Part shown: in pieces, positions 1-19,669 of the stretch
Layout: the number at the start of each line of letters is the position of its first letter
Position numbering within the stretch: the stretch's first letter is position 1
Source: an uncultured Gammaproteobacteria bacterium
GTDB lineage: Bacteria > Patescibacteriota > Microgenomatia > PFEM01 > CAYPPS01
Assembly (NCBI GenBank): GCA_964655765.1
Contig: CAZZNI010000013.1
Location: forward strand, 616-24,615
Direction of reading: 5' to 3'
DNA length: 24,000 nt
Notes under the pieces: model-generated
Database searches by the model: none
Seen by the model: the letters and a program-made list of their open reading frames with translations, nothing else
Told to the model about the DNA's origin: nothing
Made by a program: the position numbers and the translations under genes

Positions 1-1035
1 AATGTTTGTTTAAAAACAGAAAATAATCGGCTTAAAATTACCGCGACAAATTTGGAAACCGGTATTCATTATTGGCTAGGGGCAAAAATAGAAAAAGAAG
101 GCAGCCTGACAGTACCAGCCAAAACTTTTTTAGAATTGATTACTTCACTGTCGGCAGGGAGGATAAATTTAGAAGTAGATAAAAACACATTAATAGTAAA
201 TAGTGATAATGGCCGAGCTAGTTTAATGGGTATTCCCGCCAGCGATTTTCCTCAAGTACCTTCTTTTGAAGACAAACAAAAAATTGACTTGCCGATTAAA
301 AATTTAAACCGGGCAGTGACTCAAGTTGCTTTTTCTGCTTCACTTGATGATAGTAGGCCGGTTTTAAGTGGAGTTTTGTTGACCAAACGGAATGATCAAC
401 TGGCAATGGTCGCTACTGATGGTTATCGTTTGAGTTTAAAGAAAATAAGCCAGGAGTTTAAAAAAGCTCAGGAAGAATTATTTACTAAAGGAATTTTACT
501 GCCGGCCAAAACTTTAGTTGAAGCAGTTAAATTACTTGGTGAAGAGGAAGGCGGTGATTCTTTCTCATTGTCGTTGACGCCCAAAGAGAGTCAAGTAATC
601 TTCTCTTTACCGCAGGCAGAAATTGTTTCCCGTTTGATTGAGGGTGATTTTCCTGATTTTGAGAAGATAATTCCCGGTCAAGCAAAAACAGTGGTCACCG
701 TCGACAAGGAAGAACTGCTAGGAGGAATTAGAACCGCTGCTATCTTTGCCAGGGAGTCGGCTAATATAGTCAGACTGGAAGTAGCCGGTGACCGGCTGAA
801 AATCAGCGCTAATGCTCCGCAGGTGGGTGACAATTTATCAACTATTACCGCTCAAATTCAGGGAGAGAATTTAAAAATCGCTTTTAATGTTCGTTTTCTG
901 CTTGATTTTCTGTCGATCGTAAAAGACAAGGAGGTGGTTTTGGAGTTTTCTGGTGCTTTAAGCCCGGGGGTATTTAAGGTCAGTAAGGACAAAACTTTTC
1001 TTCATATCATCATGCCAGTTAGAGTCCAGGATTGA
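1..1035 (+). CDS. dnaN: DNA polymerase III beta sliding clamp, 5'-truncated by the window edge
   Basis: Frame 1 is open from base 1 (NVCLKTENNRLKITATNLETG...), so the listed TTG start at 52 is internal. Clamp-typical motifs are ATDGYRLS, FNVRFLLDFL and the C-terminal HIIMPVRV. 344 aa are present, so only a short N-terminal piece is missing. Confidence 0.9.
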   Translation, partial: NVCLKTENNRLKITATNLETGIHYWLGAKIEKEGSLTVPAKTFLELITSLSAGRINLEVDKNTLIVNSDNGRASLMGIPASDFPQVPSFEDKQKIDLPIKNLNRAVTQVAFSASLDDSRPVLSGVLLTKRNDQLAMVATDGYRLSLKKISQEFKKAQEELFTKGILLPAKTLVEAVKLLGEEEGGDSFSLSLTPKESQVIFSLPQAEIVSRLIEGDFPDFEKIIPGQAKTVVTVDKEELLGGIRTAAIFARESANIVRLEVAGDRLKISANAPQVGDNLSTITAQIQGENLKIAFNVRFLLDFLSIVKDKEVVLEFSGALSPGVFKVSKDKTFLHIIMPVRVQD

Positions 1036-2038
1036 GATATTGGTCTTGAACCGCCGGTAGAATTAAAAAAGCCTTACCATTAATTCCTTTTGGGTTACCG
1101 GTTAAAAAGAAGACTGGCTGTAGGTATTTATCTTTACTAGGAACAAAATAGGCGATTTTAAATTCCTCAAAAGCAACTGTTTGGATTTTTAGGTAGTCTG
1201 TATTCTCAATAATTAGAAAACCCGGTAAGGTAATTTTAGTTAAAAAAGGTTGACTGGCAAGCTTAGCGACTAATTGACTGGTTTTCTTTAATGGATAATA
1301 ATCAAATTCAGTTAGTGTTTTAAAAGGCGGTAGGTATTCAATTTTAACAATTCTTTTTTCCGGACCCAGTATAAGAGTGAGGAATTTACTATCCGGTGTA
1401 GAGTGTAAAACTAAAGAGTCGTTGATAAAAAAATCAAAACTAAACTGGATAAAAGAAGCTTCATTTGGGTTACTTTCAGTAAATTGAGGTCCGGCCAGTT
1501 TTAAATAACTAATTGAGTTAATTTTAAATTCACCTTTGTCGGGTAATGGGAGCATTTCGTTGTTGATTAAATTTAAGGCCTGTTTTTTGAGTTCTTCTTC
1601 TGTATCGAGACGGCCCTGGACCAAGCCTGGGTTTAAGAGTAAATCTAAGCCGTAGCTAAGTCGGCCATTGTTTAAATCTAGGCTTAAATGGTTTTCTTTT
1701 TTGCTCCAAGTTAACTTTTGTTTTTGTGTTTGATTTGGTTCGGCTTCAAATCCAAAGCTTTTAGCTAAATTTAAAGCTTCGTCAGGAGTGAGAGTATATG
1801 GTGTTATTTCAAACACCGGTAATTCCTTTTTGATATTATTTAAATCGTTCTCGATTAAAGCTAAATCGAAGTTGCCGCCAATGGGATGTTTTTCTGACTC
1901 TAAAGATGGCAGTAAATGTAATTCAGGGACAGAAAGATCTTTTTGATTTGGTTTAACTGATAAGGCAACCACTAGTAGCACCAAGGCTAAAAAAGCGAGT
2001 AAAACAACAGCGATTTTTCTTTTGGCGAATTTAAACAT
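1019..2038 (-). CDS. bitopic membrane protein, last gene of the VirB4 operon; candidate VirB8/PrgL/TcpC-like scaffold (function inferred from position and topology only)
   Basis: 339-aa ORF. Its ATG at 2038 lies 1 nt after the TAA of the upstream M23 gene (TAAaATG). The N-terminus is KRK followed by one hydrophobic helix (IAVVLLAFLALVLLVVALSV), then about 300 aa of non-hydrophobic domain. The 3' end overlaps the dnaN 3' end by 17 nt in convergent orientation. Confidence 0.6.
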   Translation of the reverse strand: MFKFAKRKIAVVLLAFLALVLLVVALSVKPNQKDLSVPELHLLPSLESEKHPIGGNFDLALIENDLNNIKKELPVFEITPYTLTPDEALNLAKSFGFEAEPNQTQKQKLTWSKKENHLSLDLNNGRLSYGLDLLLNPGLVQGRLDTEEELKKQALNLINNEMLPLPDKGEFKINSISYLKLAGPQFTESNPNEASFIQFSFDFFINDSLVLHSTPDSKFLTLILGPEKRIVKIEYLPPFKTLTEFDYYPLKKTSQLVAKLASQPFLTKITLPGFLIIENTDYLKIQTVAFEEFKIAYFVPSKDKYLQPVFFLTGNPKGINGKAFLILPAVQDQYLNPGL

Positions 2039-2039
2039 T

Positions 2040-3608
2040 TTAATAACTAGGTGTATATGGCGGTGCCATTTTTATAATATTGCCCGCTGATTGAAATTCA
2101 TAGTGCAAGTGTGGTCCGGTGGAGTTACCGGTATTGCCGACATAGCCGATAATTTGGCCAATAGCAACTGATTGCCCGCTTTGTAATGAAGAGTTAAAAC
2201 CATCCAAATGGGCATAGAGAATGCTTAGCGGTTGGCCCTTACAAACGGTGGTGATTTTAACATAATTACCGTAGCCGGGGATTTCCCTGTCTAGGACAGG
2301 GTCGTATGCCGTGTCAACACCGAAGCTAAAAACACCATTAGCAGTTGCTTTAATAGGGGTTCCGATAGTAGCCGCAATGTCTATCGCTTCGCGATTATAA
2401 TGAGTGGTTCCGGCAGAATTATTTGGCCGTTGTGTAATGGTGCCTTGAACTGGCCAGGTGGCTACTGGGCAGCCGGTTTTAGGGGTGCCGATAATGATAG
2501 CCAAATTATCAAACGAAATTTGCTCTAGAGCGGTTTGTTCTTGGCTGGTTTTGTCGGTAATTAAAGCTGTGGCGTTAACCGAAACCTGGTTTGCCAGCAT
2601 TGCATCTTGAAATTTTTCAATCGGAGCAGTTGGTATTTCGTATTGCGGAGAAGTCCAACTATTGCCATTCGGCAGATCGGGAATTTCTCCTGATTGCCAA
2701 CTTAAATCGGAGGCAATATATTCGCCCATTTCCTGGTAGGAAGAAGTTAGGTCAAAGGCGGTAAGATTAGTTAAATCGGCGCCGGTTGCGGTAATGGTGA
2801 AACTGTAAACAAAACTGGTGTTATTTTTAATTTTGTCATTGTCAATGCTTTGACCATCACTGATTGGTGTTTGTGCGCCGTTTTCATCAACAAAAAAAGC
2901 TTGTTTTTTGACACTAATATATTGTGACTTTTCTTGCCAGGGGGATAAGCGAGTGGCGCCGGGGACATAAAAAGCCGAAGCAAGAGTAATGATAGTGATA
3001 GCTCCGGTGCCGGCAATTGCGGCAATTGACCCAAAAGTTGGAGTAGCAATAATGCCGGTGCCGATTTCCATTGAGGTAATTTGCGTAAAAACACCGGAGA
3101 GGAAATTAGCCGGTTGTTGAAAAGCCAGGCTAAAACCTTTGCCGGCTAGTGTGCCGATAAAACCGACTGCTTTACTGCCCAGATGAGCGATTGTCGAAGC
3201 GGCCATAAATGATCCGCCGCCAACAATCAAAACTGTGCCTATCCCGCCGCCAATCAAAATCCCTATCGGAAGCATAATCATCCCAGCAGCAGCGTAGAGT
3301 GTTTTATCGGGTCTTTTTAAAGCCTTTTTAAGTTTAATCAAGGCCCAGCTACCGACTTTCTCTAAAACAGTTAAGGCAGCGGCGATTAATTTACTGGTCC
3401 CTTCAGGAAGACCAGTCAAAATCCCCTTAATAGAAGTTAAAACTGTTTTTAAGCCGGCTTTTTTAGCCAACTTGACGGCAGTTTTTTTACCTTGTTGTTT
3501 TAAAACCCCACTGGCTTTACTACTACCAAGGCTGAACAGTTTTTTAAAAAAAGACGGTTTTTTAATCGGTTGGTTTTGATTTTCCTGTTGGTTATTTTCC
3601 TGGTTCAT
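2040..3608 (-). CDS. membrane-anchored M23 (LytM-type) metallopeptidase, probable T4SS-associated peptidoglycan hydrolase
   Basis: The C-terminal M23 signature is HYNREAIDIAA (HxxxD) ... GNTGNSTGPHLHYEF (HxH). The N-terminal half is Gly/Ala/Ile-rich with several predicted TM helices (MIMLPIGILIGGGIGTVLIVGGG, IAAIAGTGAITIITLASAF). I place the start at ATG 3608 (MNQENNQQ...), preceded by GAGGA 8 nt upstream. The listed start at 3755 would add 49 aa running through the VirB4 3' end. The gene overlaps VirB4 by 17 nt. Confidence 0.85.
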   Translation of the reverse strand: MNQENNQQENQNQPIKKPSFFKKLFSLGSSKASGVLKQQGKKTAVKLAKKAGLKTVLTSIKGILTGLPEGTSKLIAAALTVLEKVGSWALIKLKKALKRPDKTLYAAAGMIMLPIGILIGGGIGTVLIVGGGSFMAASTIAHLGSKAVGFIGTLAGKGFSLAFQQPANFLSGVFTQITSMEIGTGIIATPTFGSIAAIAGTGAITIITLASAFYVPGATRLSPWQEKSQYISVKKQAFFVDENGAQTPISDGQSIDNDKIKNNTSFVYSFTITATGADLTNLTAFDLTSSYQEMGEYIASDLSWQSGEIPDLPNGNSWTSPQYEIPTAPIEKFQDAMLANQVSVNATALITDKTSQEQTALEQISFDNLAIIIGTPKTGCPVATWPVQGTITQRPNNSAGTTHYNREAIDIAATIGTPIKATANGVFSFGVDTAYDPVLDREIPGYGNYVKITTVCKGQPLSILYAHLDGFNSSLQSGQSVAIGQIIGYVGNTGNSTGPHLHYEFQSAGNIIKMAPPYTPSY

Positions 3609-5478
3609 TTTGTTTTTCCTCTTGAGCGGCTGTTTTTTCTTGTCTTTCCAGCATCTCTTTTGGCTTAGTGGTGACAAGTTTGTGCTCTTCAGGAGAAGCG
3701 ATGATTCGCAAAGCAACATGATTGGGGCCAGCGAAAAACAAACCTTCGCCAACATCGGCCGAAAGCAATAAGTGTTTTTCTCCCTCGGATAGATAAAAAA
3801 CTTCGGTCAGTTGGTCGATGGCTGCCGGTGACTGTTTCATTAATAATTGCAGCGAAGAGTTGTTGATGATTTCCCGGCCCATTTGGACATTTTGCAGTTT
3901 AACACTCAAGAAATCTTCAACATCTTGAGTAATAGTGGTTACTCCAAGGTAGTATTTTCTGGCCCGTTTGGCGATAGAGGTTAAAAACAGCGCCGAATCA
4001 GGGTGACGCATCATATACCAAGCTTCGTCAACGACCATAATGCGCTTTTTTAATTCTTTTCTGATTCTGGTCCAGATAAAGTCAAGGACAATAAACATAG
4101 CAATTGGCCGCAGGGATTGTTCTAGGTCGCGGATAGAAAAAACAGTAAATGGATTTTTAATATCAACATTAGAATGCTGGTCAAAAATGCCGGCAAAAGA
4201 GCCTTTGACAAACTTTTCCAGTCGGTCTGCTAAGCCTCTGGCCAGTGGATCCTCCATTCCCTGCAAGGCCTTGTAGAGATCTTCCATCAGCGGCGGCTCT
4301 TTTTTTTGAGTTGCCGGATCAGGGGTAATGCCTTTCATTTTGTAAGTTAAAGCCAGTGCTCGGTCAAGTAAAGCCATTTCACTCGGGTTCATGTCGCCCA
4401 TAATGACCTTAAACAGAGAGTGGAGAGAAAGAATTTTTTGGTTAAGTTCGTTTTGGCCTTCTTCGTAGACAGCTGATAAATCAAAGGGGTTAATTTTGGC
4501 TTCAGAGTTAAAGCCGAAGGTGATATATTCGCCGCCAACTGCTTTACAAAGCGTTTCATATTCGTTTTCCGGATCGATAACCAGTATTTCAGTATCAAAC
4601 ATTAATGATCGCAAGATTTCCAGTTTAACGGCATAAGATTTACCGGCTCCGGCTTTGGCAAAGACAACCGAATTGGCGTTTTCTAAATTAAAACGGTCAA
4701 AAATAACCAGTGAGTCGTTGTGTTCATTAATTCCGTAAAGGATTCCTTCATTAGCGGTCAGTTCAGACGAGGTAAAGGGGAAAGTGGTAGCCAGAGAGGT
4801 GGTGTCCATATTTCTGGTAATCATCAGTCTGTCAATACTAGTTGGAATGGTGGCTTTAAAAGCTTCTTCCATTTGCAAGGTGGCGTTTTTGGCGATAATC
4901 ATTAACGAGCCCAAAAGTGACGAAACTTGTTTGGTGGTATGGTTAAGTTCTTCTAAATTGTCAGCCGGGATAGTAATATAGAGAGCAAATTGGAAAAACC
5001 GCTCTGAGCCCTTAACTAACTGCGCTTGGAGTTTTTTGGCGTCTTCCAGCTTGGCAACGGTTGCCGGATTAAGCACTTTACCGCGTTCAACATCAATTTG
5101 AATTTCTGCTTCCATTTCAGCAATTTTTCGTCTTAAGTCATCCAAGACCCCTTTGCCTTCGATTGGATAAACAAACATGGAAACATCTAGTGAGTGGTCA
5201 AAATTAACCAGTGGCCCCAGCCAATTGGCAGAAACAAATCGGGGGTAGCCGGCGACGAAAAGAGTTCTGAAATAGCGGTTCCCGATTTTAAGATAATCAA
5301 AATCAACCTCGATAGCGGCCGGAGCAATAATATCTTTAACTGACAACATTCCCTGTCCCAGCTTGGCGACATTTTCTTCAAAACTAGGCTGTCCTGGTTT
5401 ATTTACCGGTTGATTAACCTGGTTTTGATTTGGTTTAACTGCCGGCTTTTTTTTCTTAAAAGGATTTACTAGTTTCAT
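3592..5478 (-). CDS. virB4: VirB4/TrsE/PrgJ-family T4SS ATPase
   Basis: 628 aa. Walker A is FAKAGAGKSYAV (around 4631-4665) and Walker B is RIMVVDEAWYMM (around 4018-4042), followed by GVTTITQD. The N-terminal pattern IAPAAIEVDFDYLKIGNRYFRTLFVAGYPRFV...WL is typical of monoderm VirB4 homologues. There is an ATGA start/stop overlap with the upstream gene at 5475-5478. Confidence 0.9.
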   Translation of the reverse strand: MKLVNPFKKKKPAVKPNQNQVNQPVNKPGQPSFEENVAKLGQGMLSVKDIIAPAAIEVDFDYLKIGNRYFRTLFVAGYPRFVSANWLGPLVNFDHSLDVSMFVYPIEGKGVLDDLRRKIAEMEAEIQIDVERGKVLNPATVAKLEDAKKLQAQLVKGSERFFQFALYITIPADNLEELNHTTKQVSSLLGSLMIIAKNATLQMEEAFKATIPTSIDRLMITRNMDTTSLATTFPFTSSELTANEGILYGINEHNDSLVIFDRFNLENANSVVFAKAGAGKSYAVKLEILRSLMFDTEILVIDPENEYETLCKAVGGEYITFGFNSEAKINPFDLSAVYEEGQNELNQKILSLHSLFKVIMGDMNPSEMALLDRALALTYKMKGITPDPATQKKEPPLMEDLYKALQGMEDPLARGLADRLEKFVKGSFAGIFDQHSNVDIKNPFTVFSIRDLEQSLRPIAMFIVLDFIWTRIRKELKKRIMVVDEAWYMMRHPDSALFLTSIAKRARKYYLGVTTITQDVEDFLSVKLQNVQMGREIINNSSLQLLMKQSPAAIDQLTEVFYLSEGEKHLLLSADVGEGLFFAGPNHVALRIIASPEEHKLVTTKPKEMLERQEKTAAQEEKQNEPGK

Positions 5479-7442: not shown

Positions 7443-7448
7443 TAGTTT

Positions 7449-7477
7449 ATTCTAACGGTAATTTCTTTTCGCTTCAA
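7449..7477 (-). promoter_or_regulatory. sigma70-like promoter for the prgI-like/virB4 operon, predicted leaderless
   Basis: The minus strand reads TTGAAG-17 nt-TAGAAT followed by 6 nt (aaacta) and then ATG at 7442. No SD is present. Confidence 0.4.
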
Positions 7478-7482
7478 CAAAG

Positions 7483-7510
7483 TTGAATTTTGCCCAAAGA
7501 ATGATATAAA
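7483..7510 (+). promoter_or_regulatory. sigma70-like promoter with extended -10 for the 655-aa gene, near-leaderless
   Basis: TTGAAT (7483-7488), 16 nt spacer, then TGaTATAAA (TG at 7502-7503, -10 at 7505-7510). The ATG at 7520 is 9 nt after the -10. There is no SD. Confidence 0.4.
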
Positions 7511-7519
7511 ATTCACACC

Positions 7520-9487: not shown

Positions 9488-9613
9488 TTAACTTAAGGGG
9501 AACTTATCGATTTCTTGTTTAGTTAAAAAAGTTTCTTCTTTTATAAAAACACCTGATTTACGATACTGAGCTTCTTGCCTCTTTTTCTTTTTTTTGTCCG
9601 TATTTTTGTTCAT
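9488..9613 (-). CDS. possible 41-aa Lys-rich small protein (not in the ORF track)
   Basis: Hand translation gives MNKNTDKKKKKRQEAQYRKSGVFIKEETFLTKQEIDKFPLS*. It lies 28 nt downstream of the VirB6-like gene on the same strand and fills an otherwise empty 154-nt gap. There is no convincing SD. Confidence 0.25.
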   Translation of the reverse strand: MNKNTDKKKKKRQEAQYRKSGVFIKEETFLTKQEIDKFPLS

Positions 9614-9641
9614 CTTAGTCTGTCAGTTGGCCAATAATCAA

Positions 9642-11393: not shown

Positions 11394-11406
11394 TTTAACT
11401 GAATCA

Positions 11407-11435
11407 AATTTAGCAATAATTGAAACTTAAGTCAA
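11407..11435 (-). promoter_or_regulatory. possible internal promoter ahead of the VirB6-like gene
   Basis: The minus strand reads TTGACT-17 nt-TAAATT, then 13 nt to the ATG at 11393. This could be a chance match in AT-rich spacer. Confidence 0.25.
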
Positions 11436-11441
11436 ACCTTC

Positions 11442-14408
11442 TTATGGACAGTACTGTTGAGAAATGATTTGGCTTTCCTGGCTGTTTGGATTAAGAATGC
11501 CTTTGGAAACACATTGTTTGGCTTTTTCGATACCGCCAAGGTAAGGGAAGTAAAAATCACCCTTGCCGGGATTAGCTTGTGAGCTCTCATTCATTAGTTT
11601 TTGCTCTTTATCGGAAGCAATGGAGCTGTTGGAAATTTTGCCTTGATAAGAATAGCCAACGGTGCTTTTGGCATTGTCGTCTGGATAGGAGTCCATATCG
11701 GCCGGGCGGAAAATATCAAAAACTCCTCTTTGGTTCCCGCCTGAATAGGAATCACCGATGGTGTAATCGCGAATTTTACCAAGAACAGGAATTTGAGTGT
11801 CAATACCCATCTTTCGATAAAGAATTAACGGGTTATAATCGCCGTATTTGCGCCAACGGCACTCTTCTTTACATCTTTCTCTTTCATCCTGCTGGTCGGC
11901 TCTAGGGTATTTATCGCGGCACTTGTCGATACATTTATTTAGATCGGATAAAAGTTTAGTTAATTGTTTTTGGCTTAAGGTAGCTCGGTAATCAGTGGCG
12001 GTCATCACTGTTTCAATTGGATAAGGACTGGCGCAAATCGGATCGTTGGGGTTGATATCAGTAATAGCATCCATTTTGCAGGTGGGAGGAGTATAACGGT
12101 CAGGGTTTTTGCAAAGATTAGTCGGCGTGCTTGTTGGCGCTCCAATACTGGAGCAAGAAGTACTGGTTATTTCTCCGGTTGCCAAGTCAACTTTTCCCTG
12201 ACATTGGTAGTTAGTTTCTCGGATTACCTGGTCGTCAGTGTGAATATGGGGATTAAAAACAGTAACTGTTATGGTAAAGTTGCCGTTTTCATCAACTTGG
12301 GCTGGTAGTAGTCGGGAAGCGTGATTGGGGTCGGTGCTGTCGTAGTAACCTGGTGTTCCACCAGAATCGTCGAGGTTCCCGCCGTTGGCGGCAAACCAGA
12401 TGTGCATGCCAGCTTGTGCCGGACCGGTTAGTCCTTCAATGCGGATGCCGTAGTCAATCGTATTTGTTGCTGAGTTGTACCTAATATTTTCTACTCCAAC
12501 CTGGTAGGCGTATTGAGGTTCGTCGTTCGTTTCTGGTTCTGCGGTGGTGTTGGCTTGGGCCAATTGAACTGTTTCTCCTAAAGCCAATTTGTAGCCGCAG
12601 TAGCTGCTTGATTGAGCTAGTTCTTGGTCAATTTCTTTCCCATTTGGGGCGGCGACAATTACTCCTGGATTGGTAGTTTCAGAGGCGACAAGCCCTTGTT
12701 GTGCAAATTCTGGCATCAGGTGTTTATTTAATTCTTGAGTGGCTTGATAAATGGTTGCCAGATGAGGGAATGAAAGCTGGTAATTTGTGATTGATAGTTG
12801 TCCTGGTGTTCGTTGTACTTGTAGAGTTAAAGTTCCAGGAGCGTCTTTGAGTGTTGTTAATGGAATGTACGGCCACAATTTAGCCCAATCACTGCCAAGC
12901 CAAACTTCGTATTCAGCCAACCAGGCTTCCATTTCAAGTTGATAAGCCATTCGTTTTGTTTCGCTGGCGCCAGGGTCAGGATATTTTGGCTCAGTACAAG
13001 GGGTGTTTTTGAACCGGCCTTTGAATTCGGCTAACTTTTTCGGCTTCGGCAGGTGGGGGTTATCCTTAAATGGAATTTGATAATTTTCGTTTGGGTCGAT
13101 AAGAGCGGTTTCAATCATCTTACAACGCAAGACATCTTGGTATTCCGGGCTGAAAAGCTTACTCATGACTCCGGCTTGCGCTTTAGCTTCTTTATTAAAT
13201 TCTTCGCTACCAACTGGGTTTTGCGGTCCTTTGCCGACCAGCGATCCGGTAAAGTAGCGGGCGAGATATTTTGATTCTTGGTTTAACGGCGGGAAATTAT
13301 AATAGCCGACAAAAGGGACGGTAGTACTGGTGATATCTAGTTCAGCTACTCCGCCCCAAGTTCTTTCGAAATAGGCAACATTTTGTTGATCGTCGCGATC
13401 ATCCGGACAATACTTAAGTTCGCTGGCATCTTCGTCCCAGCCATGAGGGCCGTTACCTTCGTGGATATAAAACCAGGTGTCTTGTTCCATAACAAAAGTT
13501 TCGGCACAGGCCTTAATTGGTTCCTTAACTTCTCCACCGCAATCTTTACAGGCAGCCGGTCTATAAACTCCGGGCTTAGCGGCCGGGTTTTGACAAGTCA
13601 ACGGCGGTGGGGTGGGGGTGATAATGGTGGGCGGCATATTAAGGATAGCCAATAATTCTGGCGGTAAAGGATTAAGATCGGGGTTTAAGAGCCACCATTC
13701 TAACCAACGAGGGTCTTTAAAAGCACCGGTGTCGCGAATAGCGACAAATAATTCGTCTCTTGCGGTGCCGATTCGTTGTCCGGCGTCTAGCGCTAACATG
13801 AAAGTTCGGCCGGTTTCGATTGCTTGATGATACATATCAACAATCGACTGGTCGACATTAAAGTTTTCAAGATAAACAGTGTATCCGCTAACAATATCGT
13901 CCTCAGCAGTGAATTTGAGGGTAATTCCGTTTTCGTCAGCATGTAAAACAATCGCGTTGTAGCCACCACCAATGTCATAATCAGCCCAAGGAACATTAAC
14001 TTCTGCTCCAGGAGTGATATTAAAACCAACATAAGTTGCCCCGGTTCCTTCGTGGTCGGCCCAAGAAGCTGGGTGATCATTTTCAGTTGGGTTAAGATTG
14101 GCAACAGATGTGACAGTTGGAGTGGTTCCGTTCCAATCGGGTGTTAAGGTTAGAAGTTGCGGCGCGCCAGGGTCAGTGTCGTGCTCAAAAGGATATACTT
14201 GGCGATTGTCATTATCAACCAGGGTGTAAGTGTACTGGTCAATATTATATTCAGGATTATCGTCAACATAACAATCAGTGTAGTCGCCGGTAGCAGGATC
14301 ACAAGCAGCCAGTAAATTAAGCGGGGAAAAGTTTTTGGCAAACAATAGTCCAATAACAACAATGGAAAGAAAGAGGATTAGTTTTTGTGAAGCTGTTATT
14401 TTGGACAT
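11442..14408 (-). CDS. 988-aa N-terminally anchored, cysteine-rich surface protein; candidate adhesin or pilus-tip factor
   Basis: I place the start at ATG 14408 (MSKITASQKLILFLSIVVIGLLFAKNF), which removes the overlap with the upstream pilin gene that the listed 14468 start creates. There is a single N-terminal hydrophobic helix. I counted about two dozen Cys, several in clusters (CDPATGDYTDC; CQNPAAKPGVYRPAACKDCGGEVKEPIKAC; CKNPDRYTPPTCKMDAITDINPNDPIC; CIDKC...CKEEC). I recognise no enzymatic motif. Confidence 0.75.
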   Translation of the reverse strand: MSKITASQKLILFLSIVVIGLLFAKNFSPLNLLAACDPATGDYTDCYVDDNPEYNIDQYTYTLVDNDNRQVYPFEHDTDPGAPQLLTLTPDWNGTTPTVTSVANLNPTENDHPASWADHEGTGATYVGFNITPGAEVNVPWADYDIGGGYNAIVLHADENGITLKFTAEDDIVSGYTVYLENFNVDQSIVDMYHQAIETGRTFMLALDAGQRIGTARDELFVAIRDTGAFKDPRWLEWWLLNPDLNPLPPELLAILNMPPTIITPTPPPLTCQNPAAKPGVYRPAACKDCGGEVKEPIKACAETFVMEQDTWFYIHEGNGPHGWDEDASELKYCPDDRDDQQNVAYFERTWGGVAELDITSTTVPFVGYYNFPPLNQESKYLARYFTGSLVGKGPQNPVGSEEFNKEAKAQAGVMSKLFSPEYQDVLRCKMIETALIDPNENYQIPFKDNPHLPKPKKLAEFKGRFKNTPCTEPKYPDPGASETKRMAYQLEMEAWLAEYEVWLGSDWAKLWPYIPLTTLKDAPGTLTLQVQRTPGQLSITNYQLSFPHLATIYQATQELNKHLMPEFAQQGLVASETTNPGVIVAAPNGKEIDQELAQSSSYCGYKLALGETVQLAQANTTAEPETNDEPQYAYQVGVENIRYNSATNTIDYGIRIEGLTGPAQAGMHIWFAANGGNLDDSGGTPGYYDSTDPNHASRLLPAQVDENGNFTITVTVFNPHIHTDDQVIRETNYQCQGKVDLATGEITSTSCSSIGAPTSTPTNLCKNPDRYTPPTCKMDAITDINPNDPICASPYPIETVMTATDYRATLSQKQLTKLLSDLNKCIDKCRDKYPRADQQDERERCKEECRWRKYGDYNPLILYRKMGIDTQIPVLGKIRDYTIGDSYSGGNQRGVFDIFRPADMDSYPDDNAKSTVGYSYQGKISNSSIASDKEQKLMNESSQANPGKGDFYFPYLGGIEKAKQCVSKGILNPNSQESQIISQQYCP

Positions 14409-14415
14409 AATGTTT

Positions 14416-14796
14416 TTATGTTCCAGGGATTTCAAAGACAGTAACCTTGATGCCGGTAAAGCTTTCAATTAACAGCAAAATAAACCAAGAGATGATTATT
14501 AAGGCCAGGCCAAAAATAGCGTAAGTGAGAGTTTTTTGCGCCCCAGCGGCTTTTTCCGGGTCGCCGCCGGCAGTAAGATACTTAATGCCGCCAACCAGTA
14601 ACATAATAAAAACAGCCAGACCGGCAAAACGCAAAGCATAATTAAAAACAATTTGAAAAACACAGCCAATATCCTGAAGAGTTGCTGCATCGTTTTTGGC
14701 TGTGTCACTCCAACAATCATTACCTGCTGCACAGGCAACAGGTAAATTAGTGACAAATAGAACCGGTAACAGTAAAACCGCAATTATTTTTTTCAT
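14416..14796 (-). CDS. T4SS pilin-like (VirB2/TrbC-type hairpin) paralogue P7, with cleavable-looking signal peptide
   Basis: I place the start at ATG 14796 (AGGA lies 9 nt upstream). The listed 14904 start overlaps the previous gene. The signal peptide is MKKIIAVLLLPVLFVTNLPVACAA. The core is FAGLAVFIMLLVGGIKYLTAGGDPEKAAGAQKTLTYAIFGLALIIISWF, that is TM1, charged loop, TM2. Confidence 0.8.
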   Translation of the reverse strand: MKKIIAVLLLPVLFVTNLPVACAAGNDCWSDTAKNDAATLQDIGCVFQIVFNYALRFAGLAVFIMLLVGGIKYLTAGGDPEKAAGAQKTLTYAIFGLALIIISWFILLLIESFTGIKVTVFEIPGT

Positions 14797-14822
14797 TTTC
14801 TTAAATCCTAACAACCAGGCCG

Positions 14823-14858
14823 GCCACATTAACGGCAAGCCTAGGTTGTTAATGTGGC
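14823..14858 (-). promoter_or_regulatory. perfect 11-bp stem / 14-nt loop hairpin 5 nt downstream of the P6 stop
   Basis: GCCACATTAAC (14823-14833) pairs with GTTAATGTGGC (14848-14858). In the minus-strand RNA the hairpin is not followed by a U-tract, so it looks like a stabiliser, attenuator or processing element rather than a canonical intrinsic terminator. Confidence 0.4.
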
Positions 14859-14863
14859 TACAT

Positions 14864-15253
14864 TTATTGTGTAGGCGGTTGAACCTTTGGAATTTGAAGA
14901 CCACTAATGATTTTTATACCAAGGAAGGTTTCAACGATTCCAATTAATGCCCAGGTTGAAAAAACAATTGCCAGTCCAATAATTGCCGCTGTTAAAGTAC
15001 TTTGAGCTGCAGCGGTTTGTTCTTTATCGCCACCAGAGGTGATCCACTTGATACCACCGTAAATTAAAAAGAAAAAGGCGACTAAACCGGCTATAGCCAA
15101 CACTAGAGTTACTAGTCCTGAGATAATACTGGGGACAGTTAAGCTTACGGCGCCGGCAAACTCCGTTGATGGTGTCAGCGTGATTGCTTGGCCAGTGATT
15201 GCTGACTCTTGGGCATATATCGGACTTGAAATTAAGTTTAAAATTTTATCCAT
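14864..15253 (-). CDS. T4SS pilin-like paralogue P6, candidate major pilin
   Basis: 129 aa. The core is LVAFFFLIYGGIKWITSGGDKEQTAAAQSTLTAAIIGLAIVFSTW. It has a strong SD (AGGAGGGAGGTGA) in a 5' UTR behind its own consensus promoter. Confidence 0.85.
   Translation of the reverse strand: MDKILNLISSPIYAQESAITGQAITLTPSTEFAGAVSLTVPSIISGLVTLVLAIAGLVAFFFLIYGGIKWITSGGDKEQTAAAQSTLTAAIIGLAIVFSTWALIGIVETFLGIKIISGLQIPKVQPPTQ
15001..15080. repeat. 80-nt near-identical segment shared with 15498-15577 (copy 1, inside P6)
   Basis: By hand alignment 78 of 80 nt are identical. The two differences (15047 c/t, 15056 a/g) are synonymous. The flanking coding sequence of the two paralogues is clearly more diverged. 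Confidence 0.9.
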
Positions 15254-15292
15254 TTTTTTCTTTCACCTCCCTCCTGGTTATTATTAGTCATG

Positions 15293-15322
15293 ATTATAAG
15301 TAAAGTTGTAAAACAAAGTCAA
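15293..15322 (-). promoter_or_regulatory. near-consensus sigma70 promoter internal to the pilin array, driving P6
   Basis: The minus strand reads TTGACT (15322-15317), 18 nt spacer, then TATAAT (15298-15293). The -35 starts 2 nt after the P5 stop, and a roughly 40-nt leader carrying GGAGGGAGG follows. Confidence 0.5.
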
Positions 15323-15324
15323 TT

Positions 15325-15729
15325 TTATTTCAAAGTTCCGTATTGGTCGTAATATTGACCAGCTGGACTTCTCGGACCGCTTGGTAAGCTGGAATTTATA
15401 TCGTTACTGTTTAGACCGAAAAATCCTGTTACCAAATTTAGAATCGCCCAGGCGGAAAAAGCCAGTGCTAGGCCAATGATAGCAGCGGTCAAGGTTTTTT
15501 GAGCTGCAGCGGTTTGTTCTTTATCGCCACCAGAGGTGATCCATTTGATACCGCCGTAAATTAAAAAGAAAAAGGCGGTAAGAGCGGCAACAACCAAAAC
15601 TAAGTCAATAATAGCGGTGATTAAGGTTTGTAGATTATAGTCGTCGCTTGCCTGTCTTATTGGAGAGCCGATTGTGTTTAGGGCTTCACCGATGTTGCTG
15701 CTGGTGGCTTGGAGTAGAAATAAATTCAT
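15325..15729 (-). CDS. T4SS pilin-like paralogue P5
   Basis: The first ATG is at 15729 and forms an ATGA overlap with the P4 stop. The listed 15744 start is a TTG. The core is LTAFFFLIYGGIKWITSGGDKEQTAAAQKTLTAAIIGLALAFSAW. There is a polar C-terminal tail (SSLPSGPRSPAGQYYDQYGTLK). Confidence 0.8.
   Translation of the reverse strand: MNLFLLQATSSNIGEALNTIGSPIRQASDDYNLQTLITAIIDLVLVVAALTAFFFLIYGGIKWITSGGDKEQTAAAQKTLTAAIIGLALAFSAWAILNLVTGFFGLNSNDINSSLPSGPRSPAGQYYDQYGTLK
15498..15577. repeat. 80-nt near-identical segment shared with 15001-15080 (copy 2, inside P5)
   Basis: See copy 1. The segment encodes FFFLIYGGIKWITSGGDKEQTAAAQ in both genes. Confidence 0.9.
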
Positions 15730-16079
15730 TGCAATGTTGGCCAAGGAATATCTAATGTTCGCAAGAATTCTATTCCCAAAAAGCCGCCAACAAAATCAAG
15801 GATAATCGTGGCAACGGCGATCAGGGTAAAGCCAATGATACCAGTCATTAATCTCTTTTGGGCTGCCTTAACTTTCTCTGCGTCGCCGCCGGCAGTAATC
15901 CATTCCAGCGCTGCCCAAAGAATCATAAACAGCAAGGCGATACCGCCGATGATTAAAATTATTGTCATTAATTTGGCCAAAAAAAGTGCCAGGATATTAG
16001 CTCCTTGGCTGGTTGCGCCTGGTTCACAAGTTTCCGGGACTAGTGGATTACAAATAGCAGCGTAAGCCTTTTTTACCAT
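15726..16079 (-). CDS. T4SS pilin-like paralogue P4
   Basis: 117 aa. The ATG at 16079 overlaps the P3 stop by 7 nt. The core is IALLFMILWAALEWITAGGDAEKVKAAQKRLMTGIIGFTLIAVATI. There is an N-terminal Cys pair (AAICNPLVPETCEPG). Confidence 0.8.
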   Translation of the reverse strand: MVKKAYAAICNPLVPETCEPGATSQGANILALFLAKLMTIILIIGGIALLFMILWAALEWITAGGDAEKVKAAQKRLMTGIIGFTLIAVATIILDFVGGFLGIEFLRTLDIPWPTLQ

Positions 16080-16459
16080 AAGTTGCCGATTAAACCTTCT
16101 AAGTCCAAAAAGTCGATTCCTAAAATTAAACTAATTAGAGAGATTAAAGTAAAAGCGCCGATGACTATTACTAAGCCAACCAGGCTTTGGGTCATTTTTT
16201 TAGTACTGTTTTTGACAGCTTCTTCGTTGCCGGCAGAAACCACCATTCCAACTGCGGCAATCATGAAATTAAAAATAAACCATAAACCAGCAACAATAGT
16301 CATTATCCCAATAACGGTAGAAATGATTCGGCTTAAATCACCTACCGAACCGAGTCCGTCAAAAGCACCGGCGTCGGAAAAGGGTCCTAGGCCGGAATCT
16401 GGTGGCCCACCGATAAGACCCAAATCTTTGTCAGCTAAATAAACTTTATTTTTAATCAT
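16073..16459 (-). CDS. T4SS pilin-like paralogue P3 (divergent loop)
   Basis: I place the start at ATG 16459 (AGGAAG lies 6 nt upstream, and the ATG is 1 nt after the P2 TAA). The listed 16555 start runs through P2. The core is IVAGLWFIFNFMIAAVGMVVSAGNEEAVKNSTKKMTQSLVGLVIVIGAF. The N-terminal region is Gly/Asp-rich. Confidence 0.7.
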   Translation of the reverse strand: MIKNKVYLADKDLGLIGGPPDSGLGPFSDAGAFDGLGSVGDLSRIISTVIGIMTIVAGLWFIFNFMIAAVGMVVSAGNEEAVKNSTKKMTQSLVGLVIVIGAFTLISLISLILGIDFLDLEGLIGNLW

Positions 16460-16460
16460 T

Positions 16461-16796
16461 TTAGCTTCCTGGCCCATAAACTGTTGGCTCAAAAATAGCC
16501 CTGGCATCACCAAAAATAATGTAACCGAAGATGGCTCCCAGAACAAATGAACCAACTATGAAAAGTAATCCCATCAGCGACTGCCAGATTTTCGCCCAAG
16601 CCGCCTCCATTTTTTTCGGATCATCACTGGCACTTAAAAAACCAAAACCGGCTAAAACCAAGTTAAAAAAGGCCCATAAACCGCCAACGGCAATCATTAA
16701 GCGGAGAATGTTATTAAGAAAAACCAACAAACCTTCCGGTCCGGTACCGTAGTTTTGAATTACTTCTGGCGCTGCGATATTGCCGATTGGATCCAT
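16461..16796 (-). CDS. T4SS pilin-like paralogue P2
   Basis: 111 aa. There is a TAATG 1-nt overlap with P1. The core is GGLWAFFNLVLAGFGFLSASDDPKKMEAAWAKIWQSLMGLLFIVGSF. Confidence 0.75.
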   Translation of the reverse strand: MDPIGNIAAPEVIQNYGTGPEGLLVFLNNILRLMIAVGGLWAFFNLVLAGFGFLSASDDPKKMEAAWAKIWQSLMGLLFIVGSFVLGAIFGYIIFGDARAIFEPTVYGPGS

Positions 16797-17131
16797 TATT
16801 CTAGTATGCTAATGCCTGTTAAAACTTTAATAATTTGAATTGCCCACCAACTGGCTAGCACAATTGCCAGGCCAATGGCTGCGGTGGTGATAACTTTTTT
16901 ACCTTGAGCAGTTTTTTCTTCATCACCGCTACCGGCACTGGTAATCATTAGTATACCACCGGCGATTAAAATGACAAAAAGAATCACACCAATAAAGACA
17001 TAAACATTAGGTAGAATCGAAGAGATAAACGCACCGATGCTTTTGTATTCATCCTGGTTGCCGATTCCACTGGTGGAGTCACCAGGGTTAAGGAGTAGTT
17101 CTTGGCCAATGTCAAAAGCAAGCTGCTTCAT
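16796..17131 (-). CDS. T4SS pilin-like paralogue P1, first gene of the pilin operon
   Basis: 111 aa. The core is VILFVILIAGGILMITSAGSGDEEKTAQGKKVITTAAIGLAIVLASWW. There is no SD, and the promoter sits immediately upstream. Confidence 0.8.
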   Translation of the reverse strand: MKQLAFDIGQELLLNPGDSTSGIGNQDEYKSIGAFISSILPNVYVFIGVILFVILIAGGILMITSAGSGDEEKTAQGKKVITTAAIGLAIVLASWWAIQIIKVLTGISILE

Positions 17132-17168: not shown

Positions 17169-17183
17169 ACCCGAACCGCTTCG

Positions 17184-17192: not shown

Positions 17193-17204
17193 GGGGGCAC
17201 TTTA

Positions 17205-18269
17205 ATGAGATTAAAAAGTTTTTTAGCTGATTATAGCCAGCAAGCCGATCAACTACTTGACCGGTTTTTCCAAGTTAAGAAAAAACAGGCGGAAACAATT
17301 TCGCCGCTAGCTGTCCAAATGCTCGATCTTTATCAAGACCATTTGCGTGGCGGTAAAAAAGCCCGGGGAGCATTAATGGTTTTGGGTTATCAAATAGCCA
17401 AAGGTAAAGAAACAAACAAGATTTTCAAAGCCTCGCTTTTTTTGGAGATGATCCATTCTTTTTTACTGATTCATGACGATGTTATGGACAAAGCCTTGCT
17501 CAGAAGAGGTAGACAAACACCGGAAGTTTTTTATCAGAAATTGGCTGATAAGAAAAATTTTAAAGGTGATAAAAAACATTTTGCTCTCTCAATGGCAATT
17601 GACTTAGGGGATCTGGGAATGTTTTTGGCCCAGGAGGCGCTTTTTGATAGCGGTTTTACCAAAGACAGGCTTTTTGATTGCCAGAAAGAAGCTAACTTAG
17701 TGTTTCAACAAGTTGCTTTCGGCCAGGCCCTTGATATTTTCGGTGAAAAGAAAGGTAAATTCAGCCAGGACTATGTTCTCAAAATCCACAAACTAAAGAC
17801 AGCTGATTATTCTGTTTCCGGCCCCTTAAGACTGGGGGCAATACTGGCTGGGGGTAACAATAGTTTATTGGAAAACTTAACTGACTATGGCTTAAACTTA
17901 GGAATTGCTTTTCAAATTCAAGACGACTATTTAGGTGCTTTTGGTGATGAGAAGGTTTTGGGCAAGGAAACCGGTCAGGATATTAAGGAAGGTAAAGCAA
18001 CGCTGTTGATTTTAAAAGCCAAACAAAAAGCCAGTCGGCAAGAAAGAGATTTTTTAGAAAAAACTTATGGCAAGAAAGATATTAGCCGGTCGGAAATAGA
18101 CAGAATTAAGGAAATTTTTATTAAAACTGGAGCGGATAAGTATAGTTTACAAAAAGCCAGTCAGCTTGTCACTGAGGCTAAAATTGTCGTTGATAAAATT
18201 ACTACTGATAAAAATAAACGAGGGCTTTTGGAACAATTGGCCGACTATATGGTGAAGAGAAATCGATGA
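17205..18269 (+). CDS. trans-polyprenyl diphosphate synthase (polyprenyl_synt family; chain length not assignable)
   Basis: The first Asp-rich motif is LLIHDDVMDKALLRRGRQT. The second is FQIQDDYLGAFGDEKVLGKETGQDIKEGKATLL. There is an ATGA overlap with uppS. Confidence 0.9.
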   Translation: MRLKSFLADYSQQADQLLDRFFQVKKKQAETISPLAVQMLDLYQDHLRGGKKARGALMVLGYQIAKGKETNKIFKASLFLEMIHSFLLIHDDVMDKALLRRGRQTPEVFYQKLADKKNFKGDKKHFALSMAIDLGDLGMFLAQEALFDSGFTKDRLFDCQKEANLVFQQVAFGQALDIFGEKKGKFSQDYVLKIHKLKTADYSVSGPLRLGAILAGGNNSLLENLTDYGLNLGIAFQIQDDYLGAFGDEKVLGKETGQDIKEGKATLLILKAKQKASRQERDFLEKTYGKKDISRSEIDRIKEIFIKTGADKYSLQKASQLVTEAKIVVDKITTDKNKRGLLEQLADYMVKRNR

Positions 18270-18988
18270 AAAAAACAATCTCAACGATCAAACTGGATAA
18301 AAATAATATCCCTAAACATATTGGCATTATTATGGACGGCAACCGTCGTTGGGCAACCAAGCGTGGTTTAGTTTCGACCGAAGGCCACGAAGCGGGGGTT
18401 AAAGCCTTGGTGGCGATAGTTGAACATTGCTTAAAGCTGGGAGTAGAAACCTTAACTGTTTACGCTCTGTCAACTGAAAATTGGAGACAGCGAGCCCAGC
18501 AGGAAGTTAAAGGCATTTTTGAATTATTAGTAAAAATGGTTCGGGAGAAGAAAAAAGAATATCGGCAGAAAGGGGTAAAGATGGCGATTTTAGGTGATTT
18601 TCAGGCTTTCCCCCGGCGGGTAGCCGGAGCAATTTCGGAAATGTTGAACATCGTTAAAGAAAAAGAGCGGTTAAAATTAAACATTGCTCTAAATTACGGC
18701 GGCCGGGATGAGATTTTGCGGGCGGTTAAAAAAATTGTTGATCAAAAAATACCGGCTAAAAAAATCACCGAAGAAACTTTCAGTAAATTTCTTTACACTA
18801 ATGGTGAGAATGATCCTGATTTGATTATTCGTACTGGCGGTGAAGTCAGATTATCAAACTTTTTACTGTGGCAGATGTCTTACGCTGAGCTTTATTTTAC
18901 CGAGACTCTTTGGCCTGATTTTAGCCCACAAAAACTTGACCGGGCAATTGCCGAATATCAAAAAAGACAGCGGCGGTTTGGCAAATAA
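18266..18988 (+). CDS. uppS: undecaprenyl (di-trans,poly-cis) diphosphate synthase
   Basis: HIGIIMDGNRRWA, LTVYALSTENWRQR, NYGGRDEI and RTGGEVRLSNFLLWQMSYAELYF are canonical cis-prenyltransferase motifs. Confidence 0.95.
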   Translation: MKKTISTIKLDKNNIPKHIGIIMDGNRRWATKRGLVSTEGHEAGVKALVAIVEHCLKLGVETLTVYALSTENWRQRAQQEVKGIFELLVKMVREKKKEYRQKGVKMAILGDFQAFPRRVAGAISEMLNIVKEKERLKLNIALNYGGRDEILRAVKKIVDQKIPAKKITEETFSKFLYTNGENDPDLIIRTGGEVRLSNFLLWQMSYAELYFTETLWPDFSPQKLDRAIAEYQKRQRRFGK

Positions 18989-19306
18989 TTAGTTGCCGAG
19001 AATAGTGACGCCAAAAATTACTTCGACCAGCTGGATTAACCACCAACTAGTAAAGATAATGATAAAACCGATTAAAGCCTGGGTGATTTTGGCCCAAGCA
19101 GCTTTGGTTTTATCAGGATTACCCATCGAAAGCATGTAGGAAATGCCACCCCAGAGCAAAAAGATAAATAAAGCAATCGCCGCCAAAGGAAAGATGTAAT
19201 TAAATGAAAGCTCCAAAAGGCCGCCCGGCTTAGTGTCGTTTAGAAAGTGGTCACTGCCAGTGATGTCGGTGTATGTTGGTAGTTTATAAGCTAAAGACTC
19301 TGTCAT
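18989..19306 (-). CDS. T4SS pilin-like paralogue P9
   Basis: 105 aa. The core is IALFIFLLWGGISYMLSMGNPDKTKAAWAKITQALIGFIIIFTSWW. Its TAA directly abuts the uppS TAA with zero intergenic bases. Confidence 0.8.
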   Translation of the reverse strand: MTESLAYKLPTYTDITGSDHFLNDTKPGGLLELSFNYIFPLAAIALFIFLLWGGISYMLSMGNPDKTKAAWAKITQALIGFIIIFTSWWLIQLVEVIFGVTILGN

Positions 19307-19312
19307 TTTATG

Positions 19313-19669
19313 TTAATCAAAAATTTTTGGAATGGCCAGGATTTCAACGCCGATAAAGTTGAGAATAAAAACAGAAAAAACAATAAACAACAGCCCCATG
19401 ACCGCAGAAGTAATAATTTCCTGTCCGCCTTTGACTTTATCGGGGTTTCCCGACGAGAGGATGACTTGAAAAGAGCCGAAGATCATTAGTAAGAAAGCGA
19501 TACCGCCACTGATGCCAAATAAAAATTGGAGAATTTGGGTTAAAAATTCGGTTGGCTTGGTTTCAATTGTGCCGAGTGCTGTTGGTATGGGTACAGCTTG
19601 AGCCTGTTGCGGCCACAGTAAACTGATTGTTATCACCAATAACAAGCCGGCCAAAAAATTTCTTTTCAT
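19313..19669 (-). CDS. T4SS pilin-like paralogue P8, with cleavable-looking signal peptide
   Basis: 118 aa. The signal peptide is MKRNFLAGLLLVITISLLWPQQAQA. The core is GGIAFLLMIFGSFQVILSSGNPDKVKGGQEIITSAVMGLLFIVFSVF. Confidence 0.8.
   Translation of the reverse strand: MKRNFLAGLLLVITISLLWPQQAQAVPIPTALGTIETKPTEFLTQILQFLFGISGGIAFLLMIFGSFQVILSSGNPDKVKGGQEIITSAVMGLLFIVFSVFILNFIGVEILAIPKIFD

Follow-up and report, generated by a model that had tools for sequence, protein, structure and literature searches.

Type IV secretion systems (T4SSs) of the Patescibacteria offer one of the few molecular handles on how this large, mostly uncultivated radiation lives on other cells. No other T4SS has been reported as essential to the organism that carries it, and among monoderms theirs may be the first T4SS to form a pilus. 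In Southlakia epibionticum, a T4SS gene cluster that includes a series of pilins was shown by transposon sequencing (Tn-seq) to be essential for epibiotic growth; the system has a Gram-positive-like composition with pilins, and no coupling or relaxase protein was recognised in it (Wang et al. 2023, PMC10633639). A locus of this kind is described here from a stretch of 24,000 nt, referred to throughout as the window (GenBank assembly GCA_964655765.1, contig CAZZNI010000013.1, positions 616 to 24,615 of the forward strand).

The VirB4 proteins of Patescibacteria form a clade of their own with MPF_FATA ancestry (Quinonero-Coronel et al. 2025, PMC12102498). According to the same work, TrsD, PrgI/VirB3, VirB6 and VirB2-like pilins are widespread across the Patescibacteria, and the pilins form 441 arrays of 2-11 genes, above all in Microgenomatia and Saccharimonadia. 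There are hardly any relaxases, the genes for type IV coupling proteins (T4CPs) mostly lie far from virB4, and dnaA/dnaN are found near virB4 in Paceibacteria and Microgenomatia. The system was inferred to have been coopted for a purpose other than conjugation, and a 2025 review agrees with this description (PMC12857230, section 22).

The window very probably carries the origin-proximal, chromosomal T4SS of a Patescibacterium of the class Microgenomatia, inherited vertically and descended from monoderm MPF_FATA machinery of the C. difficile CD1110 type. It is the Microgenomatia version of the published Patescibacteria T4SS. A preliminary description of this DNA had proposed a domesticated, origin-proximal, monoderm-type minimal T4SS without DNA-processing genes, and the tests reported below, together with PMC10633639 and PMC12102498, support that proposal. 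Because these two papers (from 2023 and 2025) describe the same system, the finding is correct and independently re-derived, but not new. The window is another well-preserved Microgenomatia example and not a new idea. It adds four things. Direct evidence identifies TrsD as an N-domain split off from VirB4; the hydrolase partner, at a place where VirB8 would be expected, can be assigned a YycI/YycH-like fold with confidence; some Microgenomatia lineages have a cognate VirD4-type ATPase within the locus; and a syntenic, pilin-bearing counterpart in Bacillales bears on the origin of the pilins.

Gene content and conservation of the locus

The T4SS genes occupy a block at 1019-17131 on the minus strand, plus a shorter piece at 18989-19669 on the same strand. 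As the preliminary description had it, the block lies directly beside dnaN. The genes are as follows.

52-1035, plus strand: dnaN, DNA polymerase III beta clamp, with three DNA_pol3_beta domains and its 5' end cut by the window
1019-2038, minus strand: 339-aa bitopic protein with one transmembrane (TM) helix (residues 9-27) and a predicted YycI/YycH-like ectodomain fold (AlphaFold2 and Foldseek)
2040-3755, minus strand: membrane-anchored M23 peptidoglycan hydrolase (PF01551), 522 aa from the probable start at 3608
3592-5478, minus strand: VirB4 ATPase of the CD1110/MPF_FATA type without an N-terminal domain of its own (Pfam, NCBIfam and PDB)
5475-6482, minus strand: 335-aa TrsD-like protein with a Pro-rich tail (NCBIfam and an unsplit VirB4 in locus L086), the "extra gene" of the preliminary description
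6483-7442, minus strand: extended PrgI/VirB3-like protein (PF12666), in which a Pro-rich linker joins an N-terminal 2-TM hairpin to a C-terminal domain
7520-9487, plus strand: 655-aa soluble protein without TM helix or Walker motif, in the slot between the polytopic gene and prgI
9642-11393, minus strand: 583-aa polytopic membrane protein with about 8 TM helices, a candidate VirB6-like platform by topology and position
11442-14408, minus strand: 988-aa Cys-rich (21 Cys) predicted surface protein with an N-terminal anchor (one TM helix)
14416-17131, minus strand: array of seven T4SS_pilin hairpin genes (PF18895), with open reading frames (ORFs) at 14416-14904 (probable start 14796), 14864-15253, 15325-15744, 15726-16079, 16073-16555 (probable start 16459), 16461-16796 and 16796-17131
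18989-19306 and 19313-19669, minus strand: two further T4SS_pilin hairpins (PF18895, E 2.4e-10 and 2.2e-8)

A scan of one genome per GTDB species returned more than 491 relatives of the VirB4, and 81 related loci were compared by calling ORFs and labelling them with iterated hidden Markov models (HMMs) built from the window proteins. The best 80 relatives all belong to Microgenomatia-type members of the candidate phyla radiation (CPR), and those that are sensibly named are Shapiro-, Curtiss-, Beckwith-, Gottesman- and Chisholmbacteria, all groups of the class Microgenomatia within the CPR/Patescibacteria. Many GTDB records of metagenome-assembled genomes with a Microgenomatia-type locus (e.g., L002, L004, L006-L011 and L013) are labelled "uncultured Gammaproteobacteria", "Bathyarchaeia archaeon" or "Nevskiaceae"; such titles are evidently placeholder or wrong taxonomic labels.

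The recurrent order in these loci is pilins, 988-aa protein, polytopic protein, variable slot, prgI, 335-aa gene, virB4, M23 hydrolase and 339-aa protein, followed by dnaN and dnaA in the opposite orientation. Genes of the variable slot are often on the opposite strand, and the rnpA/yidC/jag group comes after dnaA. The synteny across related genomes that the preliminary description had proposed as a check was found: prgI, the 335-aa gene and virB4 are syntenic in 77 of the 81 loci, and dnaN is adjacent in 56. The window's dnaN matches its three Pfam domains at E 1e-28, 6e-25 and 2e-18. On two contigs of the same organism (L083/L084, with an identical 339-aa protein), dnaA is next after dnaN, with a TIGR00362 match of E 2e-18 on the DnaA C-terminus. 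The dnaN gene marks the origin region.

Among known systems, the Patescibacteria T4SS, represented by SEML1_0006-0019 of S. epibionticum ML1, is the closest to the locus in the window. Both have an MPF_FATA-related VirB4 with TrsD encoded next to it, PrgI/VirB3, a peptidase-type wall hydrolase downstream of virB4 and a divergent array of VirB2-like pilins; both lack a relaxase in the cluster, and both are chromosomal and close to dnaA/dnaN, a proximity that PMC12102498 gives specifically for Microgenomatia and Paceibacteria. Unlike the Southlakia system, the locus in the window belongs to Microgenomatia and not to Saccharimonadia, and it is known from genes alone. There are also differences from the picture in PMC12102498. 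Few VirB3 genes were linked to virB4 there, whereas the PrgI-like gene is adjacent in nearly all of the loci compared here. VirB6 was scarce in Microgenomatia, whereas here the place of VirB6 is taken by a conserved polytopic family in which no VirB6 homology could be detected. Nor does that paper mention the YycI/YycH-fold protein that accompanies the M23 hydrolase.

Components of the machine

The VirB4 assignment is confirmed. The protein matches P-loop_TraG (E 9e-28), AAA_10 and CagE_TrbE_VirB in Pfam, exceeds the 325-bit cutoff of NCBIfam conju_CD1110, a VirB4-like conjugal transfer ATPase (E 7e-120, 401 bits), and matches the Thermoanaerobacter VirB4 in the PDB (4ag5, E 8.8e-49). The AGAGKS and VVDEAW motifs by which it had initially been recognised are both present, within a Walker A of AKAGAGKS and as the Walker B. 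Its identity is 63-90% to the 80 Microgenomatia-type loci and at most 38% to any plasmid VirB4. Of the 752 positions of the CD1110 model, it covers only 167-734.

The remainder of the model leads to the 335-aa protein. The preliminary description had recognised the prgI-prgJ-prgK-prgL order of enterococcal pCF10-type systems with one extra gene in it; the general order stands, and the extra gene is, by sequence comparison, the VirB4 N-terminal domain (residues ~9-205) encoded separately. The evidence comes from L086, where an unsplit VirB4 of 810 aa (79-2511) is followed by M23, a homologue of the 339-aa protein and, in the opposite orientation, dnaN and dnaA. Residues 9-205 of the 335-aa protein align with residues 6-203 of this VirB4 at 43% identity (E 4e-46), and it is because of this match that the extra gene can be taken as a separately expressed VirB4 N-domain. 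Some Patescibacteria lineages therefore have a split VirB4 and others a fused one. The 335-aa protein also matches NCBIfam TrsD (E 3.8e-6, under the curated cutoff) and positions 18-146 of the CD1110 model (E 3.7e-4), and its gene adjoins virB4 in 77 of the 81 loci. The similarity of its family to the window VirB4 family was weak in hhalign (E 0.34), as was BLASTP against the window VirB4 itself; no Pfam or PHROG family was matched, and a PDB sequence search came back empty.

The neighbouring PrgI/VirB3-like protein, identified as such in the preliminary description, reaches 29.5 bits against PF12666 (E 1.1e-6; cutoff 27) and has two TM helices at residues 28-46 and 52-70. Its beta-sandwich-like C-terminal domain (residues ~225-319) is conserved in 77 loci, so the protein is an extended VirB3. 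Residues 238-292 give a weak match to CarboxypepD_reg, which is a beta-sandwich.

The M23 protein was correctly described as a TM-anchored hydrolase: it has N-terminal TM segments and a C-terminal PF01551 domain (E 6.5e-21), and it is the functional counterpart of VirB1/PrgK. NCBIfam DD-endopeptidase families match it at 1e-10 to 2e-13, under their cutoffs, and the gene as called on L001 likewise starts at 3608. Of the motifs of the domain, HLH and YAHL are intact.

The bitopic protein that was expected beside the hydrolase is present, but its equivalence to PrgL fails at the fold level. No Pfam, NCBIfam, PHROG or PDB sequence match was found for it, and an exhaustive search of representatives gave a family of 163 clusters, all of about 340 aa. 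An AlphaFold2 model made from a 102-sequence alignment is very confident (pLDDT 94.7, pTM 0.86), and its top Foldseek matches in the PDB are B. subtilis YycI (2o3o, E 1e-6, probability 1.0), YycH (9a5d_B) and the vibriolysin propeptide (3nqz). The protein occupies the PrgL/VirB8 position with an analogous topology, but in its predicted structure it is not VirB8-like; PrgL/VirB8 equivalence fails because Foldseek gives YycI/YycH and not VirB8-type folds, and the bitopic NTF2-like ectodomain of the VirB8/PrgL/TcpC family was not found. The 339-aa gene lies directly 3' of the M23 gene in 31 of 45 informative loci, with 9 further weak matches, and in several loci the two genes have relocated as a unit upstream of prgI. 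The wall-hydrolase regulon of WalK is under the control of YycH and YycI, and lytic enzymes can have PepSY-type partners, as SleB has in YpeB. Because proteins of the YycH/YycI and YpeB type go with wall hydrolases, the pair in the window may, by analogy, constitute a hydrolase-regulator or hydrolase-scaffold module.

The two large proteins between prgI and the pilins on the minus strand are less easily placed. PrgI, VirB4 and the small proteins all match T4SS families, as the preliminary description had anticipated; the 583-aa polytopic protein that it called VirB6-like has no VirB6-family match. Its roughly 8 hydrophobic segments are confirmed. The family has at least 461 homologues, none with a Pfam domain; TrbL (PF04610) gave no match in 80 of its members, and a PDB sequence search, NCBIfam and PHROG gave none for the protein. 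A comparison of the family with the CD1112 VirB6 by hhalign was also negative. The AlphaFold2 model is of moderate confidence (pLDDT 69.6). Foldseek returned nothing significant with it, and R388 TrwI/VirB6 chains stand at ranks 3, 4 and 15 with the highest probabilities (0.30-0.35). The family HMM does match a 779-aa protein of Pontibacillus (E 5e-6) that is itself a weak TrbL match (E 2e-4), and the position of the gene is conserved in 34 loci. The 988-aa protein is Cys-rich, as first described, and predicted to lie at the surface; it has no Pfam, NCBIfam, PHROG or PDB match. Its gene sits between the pilin array and the polytopic gene, and homologues are found in the same position in 10 loci.

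The nine small proteins had been described as VirB2/TrbC-style hairpins. All are 2-TM hairpins that match PF18895 T4SS_pilin (E 1e-11 to 3e-5), seven of them above the gathering score of 26.6 and two just under it (24.4 and 26.5); the likeness to TrbC itself was not borne out. They align as one family with a variable N-terminus, TM1, a loop of the form GGxxxITSGGDxEK..AQ, TM2 and a short tail, and the paralogues share 22-64% pairwise identity. Eight of the nine also match the NCBIfam Mbov_0395 pilin-like family of Mycoplasma integrative conjugative elements (ICEs), at E 3e-8 to 9e-5 and under its cutoff. Only two, one of them at 19313-19669, have a signal-peptide-like N-terminus. They resemble VirB2/TrbC pilins, including the tandem VirB2 of Bartonella/Anaplasma, in their small size, in having a short polar loop and two hydrophobic helices, and in being tandemly amplified and divergent. 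The family name and the hairpin topology suggest that they build a pilus. A 157-nt direct repeat of 83% identity (14949-15105 and 15446-15602) covers the cores of the second and third pilin genes, pil2 and pil3 (64% protein identity), and indicates a likely recent duplication or gene conversion inside the array.

Mobility, coupling and the function of the system

Conservation within the sampled loci bears directly on inheritance. Identity to the window has a median of 68% for VirB4 and 41% for DnaN in the same loci, and the two co-vary (Spearman 0.47, p 3e-4). The nearest VirB4 among 72,556 plasmids is 37.6% identical. Because of the conserved dnaN-side synteny, the co-variation of VirB4 with DnaN and the low identity of plasmid VirB4s, a vertically inherited, strongly constrained chromosomal system is supported over an ICE, as far as sequence can tell. 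The preliminary description was also right about what the window lacks. No relaxase or integrase Pfam family was found in any window ORF, and there is no tRNA and no flanking long repeat in it that could mark a target or attachment site. Across all six frames, VirB4 alone has a genuine Walker A motif, so that no second Walker ATPase is encoded, and a T4CP profile built from the relatives finds nothing in the window proteins or in the six-frame translation. The absence of coupling gene, relaxase and integrase holds for the 24 kb covered. GC content is uniform across the window at about 0.40-0.46, and all ORFs are intact.

The statement that coupling genes are absent is true of the window but not in general. 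According to the literature, most Patescibacteria genomes have T4CP genes in other places. In 22 of the 81 loci (including L032, L037, L040, L044, L051, L054, L055, L062, L067, L071, L076-L078 and L080), a VirD4-like ATPase of ~728 aa is encoded divergently beside prgI, about 2-4.5 kb upstream of virB4, in the slot that the 655-aa gene fills in the window. This ATPase has the Walker A motif GKTGTGKS, TrwB_AAD_bind and TraG-D_C domains and a match to the NCBIfam conju_CD1115 VirD4-like family (E 6.7e-11), which is the cognate partner of the CD1110-type VirB4 in the same C. difficile element family. Genes of nadD-like and NAD synthase type and a 1000-1400-aa protein without assigned function often accompany this ATPase. 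The slot is highly variable, and relatives have either the ATPase or other large lineage-specific genes in it. Because so many related loci carry the ATPase, the lack of a T4CP is a property of this locus in this lineage and is not to be generalised to the genome. The possibility that the 655-aa protein, which has no Pfam, NCBIfam, PHROG or PDB match, is a degenerate T4CP was rejected: the protein shows no relationship to the T4CP profile, and its homologues are confined to the four closest loci.

It is very improbable that the cluster is an integrated conjugative element or the decaying remnant of one, and not a domesticated host system. Its VirB4, PrgI and TrsD families are indeed those of Gram-positive conjugative elements, and the gene order parallels that of the plasmid pCDC3875, but the mobility genes and sites are missing from a window of intact ORFs and even GC content, and the same dnaN-dnaA-side position recurs across several candidate orders with a VirB4 that is more conserved than DnaN and diverges along with it. 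A stronger challenge, itself distinctly the less probable side of the question, is that the system translocates substrates with a T4CP encoded elsewhere, exporting or importing DNA or protein, so that the missing coupling gene would be an artefact of a 24-kb view. The ATPases beside prgI, from the same element family as the best match of VirB4, speak for this, as do the 5,713 VirD4-type homologues, usually encoded far away from virB4, that were counted in 2,918 genomes of Patescibacteria (PMC12102498). Yet no T4CP or remnant is seen in the window, nor any T4CP within 10 kb in the four closest relatives, and in Southlakia a distant t4cp homologue is not essential, unlike the T4SS genes (PMC12102498). 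A further alternative concerns the hairpins, which would be membrane or short-conduit parts (VirB3-like or TcpE-like subunits, or a short wall-spanning tube) and not an extended pilus. This is possible, if rather unlikely. The similar 2-TM hairpins of ICEs from wall-less Mycoplasma, which eight of the nine resemble, are read as VirB3-like by some authors (PMC12857230), few of the nine have a leader, and the canonical Gram-positive plasmid pCDC3875 also has a 2-TM hairpin gene right after virB4. Against it, the locus already has a separate, bona fide PrgI/VirB3; nine paralogues this divergent suggest diversifying exposed subunits, as in the Bartonella/Anaplasma VirB2 arrays (cited in PMC12102498); and the Southlakia equivalents were called pilins by structure-based annotation (PMC10633639).

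Several observations weigh against an origin-proximal, pilus-building T4SS as preferred here. The Microgenomatia systems are known from genes alone, and no pilus built from these proteins has ever been observed. The assignment as pilins depends on PF18895, a family name: PF04956 TrbC is not matched by any of the nine proteins at E<=0.01, and a search of the PDB with the pilin profile finds no solved VirB2/TraA pilin. VirB6 homology of the 583-aa protein is not established, and the label VirB6-like reflects topology and position. VirB8, TcpC, PrgL and TraM are absent from the top 50 Foldseek matches of the 339-aa model in the PDB. The first zinc motif of the M23 domain (residues 452-459, HYNREAID) reads H-x6-D where HxxxD is canonical, which leaves some doubt that the domain is catalytically competent. 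A coupling ATPase may lie elsewhere in the genome and would allow DNA or protein translocation through a T4CP. Compared with T4SSs of the VirB2 type, the window also lacks VirB5, VirB7, VirB9, VirB10 and VirB11, in keeping with the earlier statement that it has no core of the VirB7/9/10 type.

If the locus does encode a domesticated, pilus-building machine, a mechanism can be proposed that draws, by analogy, on the R388 model (PMC9259494) and on the findings in Southlakia. A VirB4 hexamer, with PrgI and the TrsD-like domain holding it at the membrane, would pull the hairpin pilins out of the membrane and polymerise them, with the polytopic (VirB6-like) protein as platform, into a conduit or a fibre resembling a pilus. 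The M23 enzyme would open a local gap in the wall through which the fibre passes, with its YycI-like partner positioning or restraining it. The fibre or conduit would serve host-cell contact and macromolecule exchange and not the self-transfer of DNA. The Cys-rich 988-aa protein is perhaps an adhesin or tip, and the nine divergent pilins may vary the exposed surface for different hosts. By analogy with S. epibionticum, the one species for which such a requirement is known, the system is probably indispensable for growth on the host.

Monoderm relatives and neighbouring genes

Among characterised systems, the Gram-positive MPF_FATA group (C. difficile CD1110-CD1115, C. botulinum pCDC3875 and prgH-L of E. 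faecalis pCF10) shares with the window the CD1110 VirB4 family, PrgI, a wall hydrolase after virB4 followed by a bitopic protein, and the lack of an outer-membrane core. The order in pCDC3875 is VirB6, PrgI, an unnamed gene (x), VirB4, a hairpin, a hydrolase and a bitopic protein. The differences are considerable. VirB4 identity is about 31%, and the window VirB4 is split. The window hydrolase is M23-only, whereas theirs are of the SLT/CHAP type, and the bitopic protein is YycI-like in the window and NTF2/VirB8-like in theirs. The window has nine pilin-type genes and no T4CP, relaxase or PrgB-type adhesin. The hairpin gene of pCDC3875 (L088, locus 10780-11058) is unannotated, codes for 92 aa and lies directly 3' of virB4; ordinary monoderm systems, too, can thus have small hairpin proteins alongside VirB4.

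The closest VirB4 found outside the CPR is that of an 898-kb replicon of Pontibacillus sp. ALD_SL1 (L089, NZ_CP062975.1, 351-362 kb; 37.6%, E 1e-126), and it is split as well. The genes there run in the order two PF18895 pilins, an 8-TM protein (the weak TrbL match), a PrgI/TraL-like protein, a TrsD-like protein, VirB4, an NlpC/P60+M23 hydrolase and a bitopic protein that weakly matches the YycI-like family. As in the window, no T4CP or relaxase is found nearby (within 9 kb). The locus differs in belonging to Bacillales, in lying beside flagellar genes and not the origin, in having two pilins, and in its extra NlpC/P60. The replicon is labelled a "non-mobilizable plasmid". The locus may reflect either the ancestral donor type or a transfer from a CPR bacterium. 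Because of the pilins in this locus and the matches to Mbov_0395, a claim that monoderm T4SSs never carry VirB2-like genes would be too strong.

A similar core (T4CP, pilin, PrgI, TrsD-like and VirB4) is seen in Priestia megaterium pFDU301A (L091, NZ_CP045273.1, 673-699 kb). This "plasmid" of 1.08 Mb bears just one annotated feature and has a local GC of 0.336, and its T4CP and VirB4 are fragmented; it is an unpolished assembly, or possibly a different organism that was co-assembled. The neighbourhood of a plasmid VirB4 from Embleya was considered as a counterpart and rejected, because genes for a T4CP and a relaxase-like protein mark it as an ordinary conjugative cluster.

A tentative proposal, which we regard as doubtful in its full form, is that the pilin-bearing, relaxase-less architecture represents a pre-existing sub-lineage of monoderm MPF_FATA systems and not an invention of the CPR that borrowed a diderm VirB2. 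This sub-lineage would combine a split VirB4 and PF18895 hairpins with an M23 hydrolase paired with a bitopic regulator of YycI/YycH fold at the VirB8 place. Its survivors would be found in Bacillales replicons (Pontibacillus, perhaps also Priestia), and the Mbov_0395 hairpins in ICEs of Mycoplasma would be an echo of it. Were this joint claim true, the hydrolase and its YycI-like partner would form a new kind of wall-opening control module for T4SSs.

The pilin genes of the window are interrupted on the opposite strand by two housekeeping genes that are probably not parts of the machine.

17205-18269, plus strand: polyprenyl synthetase (PF00348, E 2e-55)
18266-18988, plus strand: UppS, undecaprenyl-diphosphate synthase (PF01255, E 1e-82)

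The remainder of the window (19734-24000) holds nothing T4SS-like. It encodes a 593-aa SpoIID-domain protein with a coiled-coil N-terminus, a bPH_2 membrane protein and a small DUF5657 protein (22296-22553); an ORF from 22681, with no family match, runs off the window end. In L010, the closest complete genome, uppS also flanks the pilin array.

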